DNA of 41,364 bases, from the IMG/VR virus record IMGVR_UViG_2909257012_000006, positions 1 through 41,364 of that record; one strand, 5' to 3'. A model generated the notes under the pieces. It saw only the letters and a program-made list of their open reading frames with translations. It was not told the DNA's origin and did no database searches. This DNA is from a virus (lineage: Duplodnaviria; Heunggongvirae; Uroviricota; Caudoviricetes). The first letter of the stretch is position 1. Every line of letters begins with the position of its first letter. The translations under genes and the position numbers were made by a program. Below are positions 1 to 41,364 of this stretch, piece after piece.

Positions 1-1158
1 ATGCTCACCGTTAAGCAGATTGAAGCAGCAAAGCCGAAAGAAAAACCATACCGCCTTCTCGATGGTAATGGCCTGTACCTTTATGTTCCTGTATCCGGGA
101 AAAAGGTATGGCAGCTTCGCTACAAGATTGACGGTAAGGAAAAAATACTGACCGTCGGAAAATATCCGCTTATGACTTTGCAGGAGGCAAGGGATAAAGC
201 ATGGACCGCGAGGAAAGACATCTCGGTTGGCATCGATCCGGTAAAAGCGAAAAAGGCTTCGTCTAATAACAATTCCTTTAGCGCCATTTACAAGGAATGG
301 TACGAGCACAAGAAGCAAGTATGGTCAGTAGGGTATGCGACTGAACTTGCCAAAATGTTTGATGACGACATTTTACCTATCATCGGCGGCCTTGAAATTC
401 AGGATATTGAGCCGATGCAACTGCTGGAAGTAATCCGCAGATTTGAAGATCGCGGTGCAATGGAGCGAGCAAATAAAGCCCGCAGAAGATGCGGCGAGGT
501 TTTCCGTTACGCTATTGTCACTGGTAGGGCTAAATATAACCCGGCACCTGACCTTGCTGACGCCATGAAGGGATACCGCAAGAAAAACTTCCCGTTTCTT
601 CCTGCAGACCAGATCCCGGCATTTAACAAAGCACTGGCAACATTTTCAGGAAGCATCGTATCGCTCATTGCGACCAAAGTTTTACGCTACACAGCCCTCA
701 GAACAAAAGAGCTTCGTTCCATGCTATGGAAGAACGTCGATTTTGAAAACAGGATTATCACCATCGACGCCAGTGTGATGAAGGGACGCAAAATTCATGT
801 GGTTCCTATGTCAGACCAGGTGGTTGAACTTCTCACTACGCTAAGCTCAATCACCAAACCAGTATCAGAGTTTGTTTTTGCCGGGCGCAACGATAAGAAG
901 AAGCCAATCTGCGAGAACGCGGTACTGCTTGTGATCAAACAAATCGGCTATGAGGGTCTGGAAAGCGGTCACGGATTCAGGCATGAATTCAGCACGATTA
1001 TGAACGAGCACGAATGGCCCGCTGATGCTATTGAAGTGCAACTGGCACATGCCAACGGCGGATCTGTGCGCGGGATTTACAACCATGCTCAGTATCTCGA
1101 TAAGCGCAGAGAAATGATGCAATGGTGGGCGGACTGGCTTGATGAAAAGGTGGAGTGA
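1..1158 (+). CDS. int: Tyrosine integrase, P4/IntS-like (argW-targeting type)
   Basis: 385-aa ORF; C-terminal HGFRHEF...AHANGGSVRGIYNH catalytic region; from recall near-identical to E. coli IntS; directly follows xis at window end. Confidence 0.93.
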   Translation: MLTVKQIEAAKPKEKPYRLLDGNGLYLYVPVSGKKVWQLRYKIDGKEKILTVGKYPLMTLQEARDKAWTARKDISVGIDPVKAKKASSNNNSFSAIYKEWYEHKKQVWSVGYATELAKMFDDDILPIIGGLEIQDIEPMQLLEVIRRFEDRGAMERANKARRRCGEVFRYAIVTGRAKYNPAPDLADAMKGYRKKNFPFLPADQIPAFNKALATFSGSIVSLIATKVLRYTALRTKELRSMLWKNVDFENRIITIDASVMKGRKIHVVPMSDQVVELLTTLSSITKPVSEFVFAGRNDKKKPICENAVLLVIKQIGYEGLESGHGFRHEFSTIMNEHEWPADAIEVQLAHANGGSVRGIYNHAQYLDKRREMMQWWADWLDEKVE

Positions 1159-1186
1159 ACAATCTTAAAAATCAATGAAAACATGC

Positions 1187-1218
1187 AAGGCCTGGCACTC
1201 AAGTTACAGGCCTTGCGC
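1187..1218. terminator. Perfect 10-bp inverted repeat hairpin (GCAAGGCCTG-N12-CAGGCCTTGC) between convergent int and tailspike; probable bidirectional terminator
   Basis: Seen directly; lies between 3' ends of convergent genes; moderately U-rich on - strand side, AT-rich flank. Confidence 0.45.
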
Positions 1219-1266
1219 ATACAATTTATCAACTAATAATTTAATTTTTTAAAATATCAATTAATT

Positions 1267-3450
1267 CTATCTAATCCTGAACATTACAATTGGAGCAGAG
1301 CCAGAAGATAAAGGGCCTGACCAATGGTATCTAATTCTGAAAGAAGACTCACTTGGAGTTCCGATAATTTCTATTGGACTTAAAGTTGCACCTTCTGCAG
1401 AACCAGCAGGTTGTCTAAACCCCAACACAGCAATCTGGTTTGGTGTTGGGGCATACAGAAAATTATGCTCAATATCAACCTCGTTAGATTCGCTACCTGT
1501 TGGGTTTGGCATATTCCACTCAATATAATCGTCAGTTGATTTACCATTTATTGAGTTTCCAACTGTTGCCATAATCGTCCACGTACACGTCCTGTTAAGG
1601 GCTGCCATTCTATCACCTAAAAACCTATTATAACCATTTGCGCCTGAAGTGATTAATCTTATATTCTCTGATGCACATGTGCCAATGCTGTTAAATCCAG
1701 TGCAATCAGAAGAAAGCCCCTTCGCAGTTATATCTACGCTGTTCGCAAAACAAATTGTTGTTGAATTTACTGCATCGCGAATAAGAGCAGAACCCGAAAA
1801 CAAATTATCACACGAACCTCTTATATTATTACCACCGCCGGATAAGTAACATAAATTTCCTTTTATCCTCTTGGATGTAAAAGTAACATTGTTATTGTCA
1901 CCAGTAACAGAAAGAAGCGAGGCTTTAATAGGGGCATTGTCACTCTGTAACTGACCAATTTGGTTTATTGTAACTACATTGTTGTTGCCTGATATAGCTA
2001 TCTGATACCCATCATCATCAATTGAAGGTGAATATCTTTGTGCTTTTATATTGATGTTAAGTGTCCAGATTGTACCGTTATCCAGAAGCATGTCGCGGAG
2101 AGGAGAAATTGAATCGCCAGTGTAGTTATCTGGCATTCTTCCACACGCCCTGGCTTCTGCGATGGCAACAACACCATGTGCCCCGTTGGTAAACCAGTAA
2201 CCACCTAAACTATTATCAACACACACGTGCCTCGCATTGAATCGGTTAACACCCAGCGTCTTAAATCCATAGCCATAATACACAGCATATACATGGATGT
2301 AATTTATATCGACATGTCCTGTATAAGGAGACTGATTATCAAGAACAATTCCATGACATGGTTCTCCGGGATAAAGAAGGCTTTGTTGGCTTGTTGCTGT
2401 TAATCTTGCGCTGTAAGGAGGAAGTCCACACGGGCCAAAAACAATATAATCTAGGTTAATATCACCTGGCCCCCTGAACACAACCCCCTCTCTCCCTGAA
2501 ATTCTTCCCGTTATCCTCACTTCAGAGGCGTGTTCCTGATTATCATGAAATGATCCATACCCCTCTGAATAGAGAGCATGTTCTGCAACATTATTAATCT
2601 CAACGTCAATGTGGTACATGCTGCCGAATATTTTAATGGCAGTTCCATAGTCATTGTTAACAGTGTCGCAAGTTCTCCATGAGTTTGTATCTCTTTGCAA
2701 GTCAAGATAATTACCATCAATGGTCATATCTTTTATGCTAAATCCATATGGCGCATCAGACAGATTTTCCACAACGCCAAAGCCATGTGTTTTAAATACA
2801 TCTGTATTACTACCTTTTTTAACATACAGAAATGTTGCTCTCTTTCCAGAGCCTTTATGATGAACGCCTGTATAAAGAATGATAGGAGAATCTATTAAAT
2901 AAACACCTGGAGGGTAAAATATTTCCCCGCCACCATTATTAAAAGCAGCTAATGCTGCGGCATTAATGGCATCAGAATCTGATGTCAATCCATCTGCTTT
3001 AGCTCCATAGTATTGAGGTGTTTTCCTGATTGCATCGTAAACCGTTGAAGCGCCGAAACCGATATATTTACTACCATCTGTACCGCCAATAAGTAATTTA
3101 AACTGATCCGGGTCATACTTCAGCACATTCGGAAAATAGAACTGCTGTGTACCATACGCATCATAAACAGCCATAGAATGGCCTTGCACGGTTACGAATT
3201 TGGCAATCTGTCCGTTATATACCGGATATCCAGCAGCGTTAATGATTATTGGTTGCGAAACAGGAACGTGAGAACCGTCTTCATTCTCCACATAAACCTG
3301 AATCTGGTTTTCAGGGTTTACCGGGTCAGTGTCAATTTTACCGATATAAATTTTGCCATTGGCATTTGCTTTAAACGAGCGAGCTAAAGTAAATAACTGA
3401 CTTGGTTGTGAAACAACAACGTTGTATAATTGTTCTGGCATAATAAACAT
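1267..3450 (-). CDS. Tailspike protein; P22-like N-terminal head-binding domain with a different receptor-binding domain
   Basis: 727 aa; N-terminus [37 protein letters not shown]...[13 protein letters not shown] matches recalled P22 gp9 head-binding domain; remainder diverges. Confidence 0.85.
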
Positions 3451-3463
3451 TCCGGAGAAAATA

Positions 3464-3964
3464 ATGAGTAAAAGACGTCACGAGGTAGTAACTCGGGAGC
3501 GCCTTATGGAGGTTCTCGATTACAATAAAGAAACAGGAATTTTCACTTGGAAAAAGAAATTAAGCGCCAGAGGTGCTGTTGGGAAAGTTGCTGGCACAAT
3601 TTCTTATGGATATAACGCAATTAATATTGATGGCGTAAGATATTTTGCACATAGACTTGCCTGGCTGTATGTATATGGCGAATGGCCCAAACAAGAGATT
3701 GACCACATTGATAGAAATAGAAGAAATAACGCAATCTCAAACCTTAGGGATGTCAGCAGAGTCGTAAACGCATTAAATGTCGGACCTCGAAATAGCAATG
3801 CTGGAATCAAGGGGGTAACTTTCTGTCAAGCCAGAAATCAATGGCAAGCTCAGATAAATGTCTCAGGTAAAAACATAACCCTTGGGAGATTCAACACCAT
3901 TGATGAAGCGGCTATAGCTTATAAGGCAGCAAACATGGTTGCTGACCATCTGTTGAGTAGGTAA
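3464..3964 (+). CDS. HNH endonuclease with AP2-like DNA-binding domain (homing-endonuclease-like), paralog of 25106..25597
   Basis: Motifs [13 protein letters not shown]...[17 protein letters not shown] and GIKGVTF; GGAG RBS 6 nt upstream of ATG at 3464. Confidence 0.75.
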
Positions 3965-23300: not shown

Positions 23301-23738
23301 TTATTTCAGGCACTGAGTCCTGATGTATTCCTGCAGGTAGTTAACCTGCGCGGTTATCCTATCGATTCCACTTCGGAGACGGTAATAATTGAGTTCAGCA
23401 TCTGCTGTAAGTCTTGGGCTTTCTCCATCGCCCATGCTGCTGGCTCCGGTCGTTGACTTTGCACAGGTGGCGGCGACTTGCAGGCGCTTACGCCCAGCAG
23501 AAACATCAGCACGAAGGCTTTCGATAGTAGCGTTAGCATCAGCAAGCTCCTTTGTGTATCTGGCGTCGAGTTCTGCTACATCACGTTGACGCTTCTGCAT
23601 GTCAGCGATTGTGGATGTGGCCTTATCGCGCTGCTCTTTGTAGGCGATTGCGTTATCACGGTAATGATTAACAGCCCATGACAGGCAGACGATGATACAG
23701 ATAACCAGAGCAGAGATAATCGCGGTGACTCTGCTCAT
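23301..23738 (-). CDS. Rz: Spanin inner-membrane subunit Rz
   Basis: N-terminus [31 protein letters not shown] matches recalled lambda Rz; follows R. Confidence 0.8.
23354..23545 (-). CDS. Rz1: Spanin outer-membrane lipoprotein Rz1, embedded in Rz in +1 frame
   Basis: Embedded ORF with lipobox-like LGVSAC and Pro-rich mature part. Confidence 0.65.
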
Positions 23739-24211
23739 ACCTCAATCTCTCTGACCGCTCCGCCAGCCTCTTTGAATTTTGCAATCAGGCTGTCAGCCTT
23801 ATGCTCGAACTGGCCATAACCAGCCCCCGGCAGTGAAGCCCAGATGTTGCTGCAACGGTCGATAGCCTGACGGATATCACCGCGATCAATCATCGGCAAA
23901 GCGCCACGTTCCTTAATCTGCTGCAATGCCACAGCGTCCTGGCTTTTCGGAGAGAAATCTTTCAGGCCAAGCTGCTTACGATAGGCATCCCACCAACGGG
24001 AAAGAAGCTGATAGCGACCGGCTGCTGTTGATTTGAGTTTTGGGTTTAGCGTGACAAGTTTGCGAGGGTGATCGGAGTAATCAGTGAATAGCTCTCCACC
24101 AACAATGACGTCATAACCATGATTTCTGGTTTTCTGACGTCCGTTATCAGTTCCCTCTGACCACGCCAGCATATCGAGGAACGCCTTACGTTGATTATTG
24201 ATTTCCACCAT
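23735..24211 (-). CDS. R: Endolysin, lambda R-type lytic transglycosylase
   Basis: 158 aa; [39 protein letters not shown] near-identical to recalled lambda R. Confidence 0.93.
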
Positions 24212-40568: not shown

Positions 40569-40850
40569 ATGAGCATTCATGATTTGTGTGAAGATCAAGA
40601 GCAATGGGCTATGCAGACCCTTATGGGATCAGGAGTTCTTGCAAGGTGCAGAATCCATAACGATGTAATTTTAGACAGCGGAAATGATGCTTCTTCTGCT
40701 TATAAATTAGGAACTTACCTATATCAAAAAGATAATAGCTGCAACTTATTCAATACTCTTACTGAAGCCCGCGACGCAATAAAGGATGCATATGAATCGT
40801 ATTGTGGGATTGATGATTGCCCACAATGCTCAAAATACATTGACGATTAA
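40569..40850 (+). CDS. Hypothetical Cys-containing protein
   Basis: 93 aa from internal ATG; CPQC motif. Confidence 0.45.
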   Translation: MSIHDLCEDQEQWAMQTLMGSGVLARCRIHNDVILDSGNDASSAYKLGTYLYQKDNSCNLFNTLTEARDAIKDAYESYCGIDDCPQCSKYIDD

Positions 40851-40938
40851 TAATATGAACAAGTAACTATCCTCGCACTCGCGGGGATTTCTTTTATCTG
40901 AACTCGCTACGGCGGGTTTTGTTTTATGGAGATGATAA

Positions 40939-41106
40939 ATGCACTTTCGAGTCACAGGTGAATGGAATGGAGAGCCATTCAACAGAGTTATCGAAGCAGA
41001 GAACATCAATGACTGCTATGACCACTGGATGCTATGGGCGCAGATAGCGCATGCAGACATAACCAATATTCGAATTGAAGAACTGAAAGAACACCAAGCC
41101 GCCTGA
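40939..41106 (+). CDS. Small hypothetical protein (55 aa)
   Basis: GGAG RBS 7 nt upstream; stop lies in terminator loop; below track cutoff. Confidence 0.4.
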   Translation: MHFRVTGEWNGEPFNRVIEAENINDCYDHWMLWAQIAHADITNIRIEELKEHQAA

Positions 41107-41121
41107 TGGCGGTTTTTTATT
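41096..41121 (+). terminator. Rho-independent terminator upstream of xis-int
   Basis: CCGCC-tgat-GGCGG followed by TTTTTTATT. Confidence 0.65.
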
Positions 41122-41125
41122 ACCT

Positions 41126-41145
41126 GATTTGCAGGTTCGATTCCC
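41126..41145. other. tRNA T-arm-like segment (TTGCAGGTTCGATTCC), candidate att core or relic
   Basis: 16-mer matches recalled E. coli argW T-stem/loop; located upstream of xis next to IntS-type integrase; downstream bases do not complete a tRNA 3' end. Confidence 0.35.
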
Positions 41146-41163
41146 TATTCGGAGATAGCACTC

Positions 41164-41364
41164 ATGCAACACGAACTACAGCCTGATTCACTGGTTGATT
41201 TGAAATTCATCATGGCCGATACTGGCTTCGGTAAAACCTTCATCTATGACCGGATTAAGTCCGGCGACCTGCCAAAAGCCAAAGTTATCCACGGGCGAGC
41301 AAGATGGTTATATCGTGACCATTGTGAATTCAAAAATAAGCTCTTAAGCCGCGCCAATGGGTAA
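41164..41364 (+). CDS. xis: AlpA/Xis-type excisionase or transcriptional regulator
   Basis: 66 aa; DLKFIMADTGFGKTFIYDRIKSGDLP HTH typical of AlpA family; stop abuts int start across the window boundary. Confidence 0.75.
   Translation: MQHELQPDSLVDLKFIMADTGFGKTFIYDRIKSGDLPKAKVIHGRARWLYRDHCEFKNKLLSRANG

Follow-up and report, generated by a model that had tools for sequence, protein, structure and literature searches.

A modular Lederbergvirus tailspike whose receptor-binding body is associated with Escherichia coli ST131

Introduction

How is the tailspike of a P22-like prophage put together, and which host glycan does it recognise, when its N-terminal region is familiar and the remainder is not? 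This question is raised by a gene lying towards one end of the window analysed here, the 41,364 nucleotide stretch of DNA that makes up positions 1 to 41,364 of IMG/VR virus record IMGVR_UViG_2909257012_000006. An earlier, sequence-only reading of this DNA described the gene product as a chimeric tailspike in which a conserved P22-type head-binding domain is joined to a divergent body, and proposed both a different O-antigen specificity for the protein and a recombination hotspot at the junction. Conserved anchors carrying exchangeable enzymatic receptor-binding domains (RBDs) are well documented in the Lederberg- and Uetakeviruses (PMC12243541; 10.1101/2024.09.12.612763; PMC10408124), and the modularity of P22-like tailspikes is textbook material, making the architecture of this protein an ordinary one. 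The description 'chimeric' is therefore apt in that a conserved anchor is joined to a non-homologous body, but not as a mark of oddity, since proteins built in this way are normal for the family. Here, we describe the gene and its modules, the bacteria in which the body of the spike is found and the glycan that it most likely recognises.

The prophage and its tailspike gene

The window is a complete Lederbergvirus-type (P22-like) prophage at argW of E. coli GN04171, with its far end located inside the host gene dsdC. In the RefSeq annotation, intS lies next to argW and is followed by the genes for the tailspike, HNH, ant, arc and mnt, then by those for the ejection proteins, gp10, gp4, capsid, scaffold, portal and terminase, with the lysis genes, Q, the nin region, the replication genes, cII/cro/cI, the recombination genes and torI completing the order. 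As expected for a P22-like genome, the tailspike gene occupies the gene 9 position, where it comes after the genes for the ejection proteins and after immI, and in this it resembles the gene encoding P22 gp9. Features at this end of the window are listed in Table 1.

Table 1. Features of the tailspike gene and its surroundings (positions are those of the window; residues are numbered from the first ATG)
Feature	Position	Strand	Basis and remarks
Tailspike gene	1267..3450	-	727-aa ORF from first ATG; stop codon 1267..1269; ORF list
Head-binding (virion-docking) domain, residues 4-117, ends KYDPDQF	3100..3441	-	Pfam PF09008, PDB matches, DNA similarity
Linker/neck and beginning of beta-helix cap, residues 118-156	2983..3099	-	
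Right-handed parallel beta-helix cassette, residues 157-600	1651..2982	-	Presumed glycan-binding/catalytic module
C-terminal beta-rich domain, residues 601-727	1270..1650	-	Modelled strands; homologous across family
HNH endonuclease gene	3464..3964	+	PHROG 99, E 7e-63; RefSeq annotation
Integrase IntS gene	1..1158	+	Convergent with tailspike; adjoins tRNA-Arg (argW); ORF list, RefSeq, argW-yfdC context
Inverted repeat, perfect 10-bp, GCAAGGCCTG / 12-nt loop / CAGGCCTTGC, then T-rich run	1185..1216		Read from sequence

The corresponding RefSeq CDS in E. coli GN04171 (WP_050008022.1, 'phage tailspike protein') is found at the same locus and is 100% identical at the DNA level. Translation probably begins at the second ATG of the open reading frame (window position 3441, Met4), giving a protein of 724 amino acids: this is the start used by RefSeq, and the homologue in phage Kapi1 likewise begins MPEQLYN. 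P22 gp9 is 667 amino acids long (PDB 8tvr), making the window protein 57-60 amino acids longer, much as the sequence-only reading had estimated (about 60).

The HNH endonuclease gene is divergent from the tailspike gene, with start codons 13-22 bp apart; together with the opening ~350 nt of the spike gene, it makes up a single block that is common to phage Kapi1. In EC32, OZ039045, OZ040950 and Ecol_276, the same spike has no HNH gene upstream of it. At the other end of the gene, the inverted repeat separates the stop codons of the convergent tailspike and int genes and is probably a bidirectional terminator, to judge from its sequence; the automatic terminator scan, with its loop limit of 8 nt, missed it. 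The promoter/terminator scan showed no enrichment of promoter-like sites.

A number of phages of this type carry genes that modify the O-antigen of their host. P22 carries gtrABC, Sf6 carries oac next to its spike gene and HK620 also carries an O-antigen-modification gene. Unlike Sf6, the GN04171 prophage has no O-antigen-modification gene annotated between spike and int.

A conserved head-binding domain with a sharp edge

The Pfam Head_binding profile (PF09008) is matched over its full length by residues 4-116 of the protein, with an E-value of 2.8e-64 and a score of 214.8 bits against a cut-off of 24. In phmmer searches, the solved chains of P22 gp9 (an endorhamnosidase; PDB 2xc1, 8tvr) match residues 9-119 with E about 1e-47, the two proteins being identical at 80 of 109 positions (73.4%), which bears out the proposal that the first ~110 residues correspond to the particle-binding domain of gp9. 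Matches of this strength go far beyond what chance would produce. The label 'P22-type' requires some adjustment, however, as Sf6 and Kapi1 are closer than P22: the N-terminal domain of Sf6 gp14 scores better than gp9 and is identical at 100 of 114 positions (88%), and the Sf6 gp14 and Kapi1 spikes have the closest head-binding domains of all, in phages that share the argW/int mode of integration seen here. The O16-targeting spikes of BASEL phages (Lederbergvirus CurroJimenez/Bas106, Huey, Dewey and Louie) likewise offer a similar Lederbergvirus head-binding domain, at about 90% nucleotide identity.

The edge of the conserved region is sharply defined. When the gene and its flanks were compared by BLASTN with the closest Lederbergvirus records, every alignment broke at gene nt 348-350, corresponding to residue ~117, directly after the KYDPDQF motif. 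Relative to the spike gene, the Kapi1 alignment extends from -399 to +348, at 97.3% nucleotide identity, whilst those to 720R6, Sf6 and HK620 span gene nt 58-350. Past residue ~117-130, no similarity was found to P22, Sf6, HK620, Kapi1 or Bas106 other than a short generic beta-helix cap motif, so that the Sf6 gp14 and Kapi1 spikes differ from the window protein in having bodies that are unrelated to it. The phmmer alignment to P22 gp9 stops at residue 119 and no Pfam P22-tail domain is reported beyond it; the rest of the protein thus diverges from P22 as had been claimed. The head-binding segment is found in 1,136 of 5,426 complete E. coli genomes and the full gene in nine. Because the breaks all fall at nt 348-350, and because the head-binding segment is so much more widely distributed than the full gene, the junction between the head-binding domain and the body behaves as an exchange point, in keeping with the recombination hotspot suggested earlier.

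It is not the only junction. A second, minor junction lies at gene nt 57-75: the first ~20 codons, together with the upstream HNH gene, are common to the window and Kapi1, whereas in the other carriers of the body the spike opens with MTDITANVVVSM... and no HNH gene is present. Beyond the head-binding edge and this minor junction at about nt 57-75, further junctions are found at residue ~157 and residue ~600.

Fold and family of the body

An AlphaFold2 monomer model, built on an alignment of 21 family sequences, has pLDDT values mostly >90 from about residue 140 to residue 727 and reveals a long beta-solenoid and, after it, a C-terminal domain rich in beta structure. The low pLDDT of the head-binding part reflects an alignment depth there of a single sequence. 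The plan of the protein (anchor, neck, parallel beta-helix and C-terminal domain) is that of P22 gp9 and of P22-type tailspikes in general, although the body itself is non-homologous to that of gp9. The domain-wise BLASTP and structure prediction that the sequence-only reading had recommended accordingly return a conserved head-binding domain, an unrelated body and a confidently modelled beta-helix. By analogy, the C-terminal domain may contribute to trimer assembly or stability.

Sequence searches place the body in a small protein family, PHROG 8280. The PHROG profile matches body residues 4-608 (E 9.4e-110) and the pectate-lyase-like Pfam domain PF12708 matches the cap (residues 148-259; 41.9 bits against a cut-off of 27). 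An indexed search of 5.8 billion sequences yielded 22 homologues with 32-87% identity, aligning from residue ~145 to the C-terminus, and an exhaustive search of 1.84 billion representatives yielded 35 clusters at E <= 1e-30. Two clusters, P0001 (148 member sequences) and P0002 (23), account for the ~170 database genomes in which this body is encoded. The anchors in this family vary, and include PF09008, PF18668 and the T7 fibre domain PF03906, with no recognised anchor in some members. Six acidic residues (E296, E321, D330, D371, E432 and E595) are found unchanged throughout the family, even in relatives with as little as about 32% identity, and lie in conserved blocks, a pattern typical of a conserved active site; the best-conserved block, NQEHAS..TGRISG.EG.VFRGPGD, spans residues 304-330.

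The searches found no characterised relative of the body. In a megablast search of the gene against phages, only the 5' 350 nt were matched and the body DNA was found in no deposited phage genome. By tblastn, the best phage match to the body is a hypothetical protein of vB_EcoP_R4596 with 29.8% identity, and so the possibility that the body would align throughout to a characterised tailspike of known specificity, which would have overturned the original proposal, was not borne out. Sequence and profile searches of the PDB with the body matched the cap motif only, and fold searches identified generic beta-helix neighbours at 9-16% identity. Nearest among the solved folds are the A-module of the mannuronan C5-epimerase AlgE4, phi29 gp12 and CBA120 TSP2, at 13-16% identity, but these share no identified catalytic motif with the body and have different substrates.

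The PHROG 8280 family carries the description 'tail spike protein with colonic acid degradation activity', and the strength of the profile match might be taken to indicate that the body is a colanic-acid depolymerase. This label is a family name, however, and Pharokka assigns the same one to the unrelated, experimentally O16-dependent spike of Bas106. Moreover, wcaJ to wcaM are present in all carriers of the body and in E. coli generally, and so cannot explain why it is found in just 10 of the 5,426 complete E. coli genomes. We consider a colanic-acid substrate to be highly improbable.

A beta-helix cassette shared with an epsilon15-type spike

One of the ten carriers, E. coli NR379, encodes the body in a different setting. 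The NR379 spike (WP_074158656, a 781 amino acid 'GH28-related protein') is encoded by a prophage near yfgI, with holin and GH19 lysis genes coming next after its gene. Over the first 154 residues of this protein, identity is 75% to the epsilon15 gp20 tailspike and 97-99% to those of E. coli epsilon15-like phages. This Uetakevirus-like spike and the window protein have in common the cassette formed by residues 157-600 and an O25b-type host background, but differ in N-terminal anchor, C-terminal domain, prophage and integration site. Across the cassette, the two are 99.1% identical at the amino acid level and 98.9% at the nucleotide level, with differences at 15 of 1,332 nt; of the codon differences, 11 are synonymous and four are non-synonymous. 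By comparison, residues 601-727 are only 53-73% identical to NR379, and over the cassette and this divergent C-terminal part together nucleotide identity is 94.5%.

The intervening residues 118-156 are carried only by Lederbergvirus-borne copies of this spike. They are 100% identical across the argW prophage alleles and 35% identical to NR379, and at the DNA level they match neither the NR379 spike nor any other Lederbergvirus spike. Because the cassette is ~99% identical whilst the anchor and C-terminus differ, we conclude that the beta-helix moved recently between P22-type and epsilon15-type spikes as a cassette, sharply delimited at either end.

The hosts of the spike

Which bacteria carry the body? 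Nine of the ten carriers were typed, EC20, in which the spike lies on a 176-kb contig, being left out. Eight of the nine have an O25b-type O-antigen cluster and one, EC32, has O16. In seven of the eight (GN04171, MNCRE44, OZ039045, CAVp367, OZ040950, Ecol_276 and 875), rfbBDAC, an 'O25 family' wzx and wbbJ-type 3' genes are present, with identical protein accessions. The eighth, NR379, retains these 3' genes but has lost rfbBDAC and wzx by deletion, and strain 875 has a glycosyltransferase that is broken into two ORFs; these lesions imply that lysogens need not display the receptor now. The cluster of GN04171, the source strain whose O-antigen type the sequence-only reading had wished to see determined, is an intact O25b cluster. 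A 'frameshifted hypothetical protein' at the wzy position was considered as a possible polymerase defect in GN04171 and rejected, as the same annotation is seen in every O25b-type genome examined; it is best regarded as an annotation convention or a lineage-wide feature rather than a strain-specific lesion. Across the 5,426 genomes, the O25-type wzy-wzx region is found in 461 (424 of them at >=99% identity); O25b is far commoner among the typed carriers (eight of nine) than this would lead one to expect.

The carriers also appear to be related to one another. MNCRE44 belongs to ST131 H30R (PMC4392156). The chromosomal flanks of the prophages in GN04171, NR379 and EC32 are identical or near-identical. 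In the case of EC32, the flank is 99.98% identical to that of GN04171 whilst gnd is 95.4% identical, a contrast of the kind to be expected for an O16 strain of ST131 clade A. Carriers whose flanks were compared thus appear to belong to one clonal lineage, and within E. coli the body seems essentially confined to ST131, on the basis of documentation for MNCRE44 and of flanks or O-cluster accessions for the others. As hosts, the carriers are thus not independent of one another, which confounds serotype with lineage, and the factor that they have in common could be something other than the O-antigen.

The prophages themselves are more diverse than the chromosomes in which they reside. Their ends differ by 1-2% and show four upstream gene arrangements, whereas the chromosomal flank differs by 0.02%. 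Divergent prophages on near-identical flanks point to independent lysogenisations, suggesting that spike-bearing phages have lysogenised this lineage repeatedly and on two virion platforms.

If lineage is the common factor, the target might be some other glycan on the surface of ST131, a group 2 capsule for instance. All the typed carriers, the O16 strain included, appear to form one clonal lineage; the K1-capsule endosialidase spike of the Lederbergvirus CUS-3 shows that a head-binding domain of this kind can bear a capsule depolymerase; and beta-helix folds are found in capsule depolymerases too. The kps genes nevertheless offer little encouragement. MNCRE44 has a full kps locus just before its IS1B-glcB junction, but in GN04171 sat, IS30, IS600 and IS1B are followed directly by glcB, with the loss of ~62 kb that includes kps, whilst the O25b cluster is intact (although this deletion could postdate lysogeny). 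The EC32 region examined contains no kps genes, but its pheV island has been rearranged by IS elements and it says nothing either way. In addition, one cassette is found on both P22-type and epsilon15-type platforms, which classically use O-antigen, and a trisaccharide common to O25b and O16 (see below) can explain the two-serotype distribution. A capsular target is, in our view, unlikely, and we return to the O-antigen as the preferred receptor.

Receptor and chemistry

The O25B repeat has the structure ->4)-[beta-Glc-(1->6)]-[alpha-L-Rha-(1->3)]-alpha-D-Glc-(1->3)-alpha-L-Rha2Ac-(1->3)-beta-D-GlcNAc-(1->, in which acetylation is predicted by homology to O16 (PMC8260533), and the O25b cluster contains homologues of wbbL and wbbJ (PMC3789825). 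Neither the O25b nor the O16 repeat contains a uronic acid. The O16 structure, which Stevenson et al. are said to have described in 1994, reportedly includes alpha-Glc-(1->3)-alpha-L-Rha2Ac-(1->3)-GlcNAc, an element also found in the O25b repeat. Epimerase and lyase chemistry needs uronic acids, and their absence from both repeats makes hydrolysis likelier than either, despite the fold match to AlgE4.

Conceivably, the glycan is bound by the spike but not cleaved, or is modified (by deacetylation of Rha2Ac, for example) without depolymerisation. The best structural neighbours, the AlgE4-type epimerases, are not hydrolases, sequence similarity extends to the N-terminal cap only and catalytic residues could not be assigned. 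Set against this are the six acidic residues that remain invariant to about 32% identity, as they would in a conserved active site, the poor suitability of O25b and O16 for lyase or epimerase chemistry and the precedent of the characterised P22-type and epsilon15-type spikes, which are endoglycosidases; the Sf6 spike, too, is annotated as 'endorhamnosidase'. A non-cleaving spike seems to us improbable.

Is O16 also a receptor? The allele from the O16 host EC32 differs from the window body at two residues only, D254Y and P340L (99.7% identity), the latter being a peculiarity of the window allele, as L340 is common to all the others. Over the 5.1 kb compared, the end of the EC32 prophage has 98.05% identity to that of OZ039045, an O25b host, and the genes upstream are arranged in the same way in both. 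Known O16 spikes are of a different kind. Those of the BASEL collection have a pectin-lyase-like RBD on exchangeable anchors (10.1101/2024.09.12.612763) and form a homologous group of their own (10.1101/2024.09.12.612763; PMC12243541). The window body falls outside this group: BLASTP similarity to the Bas106-type RBD ends at about residue 190, other pieces are non-significant, and the BASEL O16-targeting phages are absent among the tblastn matches of the body. With known O16-specific spikes (the Bas106 group) in another family, recognition of O16 by this body is best treated as a hypothesis.

One version of that hypothesis is that the beta-helix recognises, and perhaps cleaves within, the shared Glc-Rha2Ac-GlcNAc element, thereby opening both ST131 serotypes (O25b in clades B/C and O16 in clade A) to what would be a 'pan-ST131' module circulating in at least two podovirus genera. 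We put this forward tentatively. Equally tentative is the opposing idea that the spike is strictly O25b-specific and that the O16 lysogen EC32 acquired its prophage other than by spike-mediated infection of an O16 cell, whether through homologous recombination in the argW region or transduction from an O25b ST131 donor, or through infection of a transient rough variant. The preponderance of O25b among the typed carriers and the separate family of the known O16 spikes would both fit, and the near-identical flanks between clades make recombinational transfer feasible. The similarity of the EC32 and OZ039045 prophage ends, on the other hand, implies that phages with this spike lysogenised both serotypes, and the near-identity of the body in the O16 host is equally compatible with dual specificity, albeit on the strength of a single O16 case.

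Taken together, these considerations lead us to regard the protein as probably a modular Lederbergvirus tailspike with an O-antigen-hydrolysing beta-helix, the receptor for which is most likely O25b and possibly O16 as well. The specificity would thus differ from that of P22, as had been predicted; the body is unrelated to those of P22, Sf6, HK620, Kapi1 and the O16-specific Bas106. On this model, residues 4-117 would dock a presumably trimeric spike to the tail hub and would be followed by a short neck. The right-handed parallel beta-helix formed by residues ~145-600 is predicted to bind, and most probably to hydrolyse, the host O-antigen, with residues 601-727 making up the C-terminal beta domain. 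The receptor would most likely be the O25b O-polysaccharide of ST131, with O16 perhaps accepted too because both glycans contain alpha-Glc-(1,3)-alpha-L-Rha2Ac-(1,3)-GlcNAc, in or beside which the bond cleaved may lie. The protein itself appears to have arisen by modular recombination, with head-binding module, beta-helix cassette and C-terminal domain each having different closest relatives and with the same cassette also being found on an epsilon15-type anchor.

Perspective

A published survey assigned 14 receptor-binding protein subtypes to E. coli serogroups, among which O16 is included and O25 is not (PMC10408124). Our literature search found no O25b-specific tailspike, nor any paper naming the RefSeq accessions of the spikes described here. 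What is new, then, is an RBD subtype with no characterised relative and a strong association with ST131 (O25b and, once, O16). The near-identical cassette on P22-type and epsilon15-type anchors provides a clean natural case of very recent exchange with defined breakpoints. ST131 is a multidrug-resistant pandemic lineage, and what is probably a new specificity is thus medically relevant. If the O25b or dual O25b/O16 assignment is true, the spike could be put to use in three ways, namely as a diagnostic probe for ST131, a depolymerase and an exchangeable module for engineered phages; should the pan-ST131 reading be the true one, the cassette would be a ready-made reagent for ST131 detection, O-antigen removal and host-range engineering.

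Prophage ends and HNH endonuclease genes

Whereas P22, Sf6 and HK620 all carry an O-antigen-modification gene between the tailspike gene and int, the window prophage is without one: no gtr- or oac-type gene is found in this interval (window 1159..1266). The xis-like torI gene is located at the opposite end of the prophage from int (window 40585..41364 region), from which it follows that attP is situated between int and the early-left genes. The same placement is seen in Sf6 and Kapi1, whilst the arrangement in P22 differs. The final ~390 nt of the window, beyond the prophage, belong to the host dsdC gene.

The prophage also encodes two free-standing HNH endonucleases (see table). The start codons of the first of these genes and of the tailspike gene are divergent and are separated by just 13-22 bp. 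This HNH gene and the 5'-most ~350 nt of the tailspike gene make up a single block, which shares 97% identity with phage Kapi1. Other prophages bearing the same spike body lack this HNH gene.

Positions of int, the HNH endonuclease genes and the O25b-cluster lesions
Feature	Record	Position	Strand	Description
int	window	1..1158		adjoins argW; convergent with tailspike
HNH endonuclease gene 1	window	3464..3964	+	between ant and tailspike
HNH endonuclease gene 2	window	~23411..23902	-	between Q antiterminator and holin
NR379 lesion	L006 (stretch of carrier genome record)	786935-788003		rfbBDAC and wzx lost
Strain 875 lesion	L013 (stretch of carrier genome record)	796645-797746		wbbK-like glycosyltransferase in two separate ORFs

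The pheV island and capsule locus

Comparison of the pheV island of the source strain GN04171 (genome stretch L035, record ~3,690,000-3,694,200) with that of MNCRE44 (L037/L038, record 3,313,000-3,378,300) revealed an IS-bounded deletion of ~62 kb in GN04171, through which iha, the sialic-acid catabolism cluster, agn43 and the entire kps capsule locus are missing. The right-hand IS1B-glcB junction is identical in the two strains. The pheV island of EC32 is also rearranged (L036, record 815001-865000): here a truncated sat gene adjoins IS1, followed by speA. Compared with the other ST131-type genomes, this order suggests that IS elements have mediated an inversion or a deletion.

The O-antigen cluster in carrier strains

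In all O25b-type clusters examined (including the carrier-genome stretches L004, L007 and L008), the ORF at the wzy position is labelled 'hypothetical protein, frameshifted'. This seems to be either a matter of annotation practice or a feature of the whole lineage; that the label is identical throughout disfavours a strain-specific defect. Two of the nine typed carriers, NR379 and strain 875, have a damaged O25b cluster (see table). Although IS1 insertions in the cluster are also seen in non-carrier genomes, among the best matches in a search with the O25-type wzy-wzx region, selection against the phage receptor could be the cause of these lesions.
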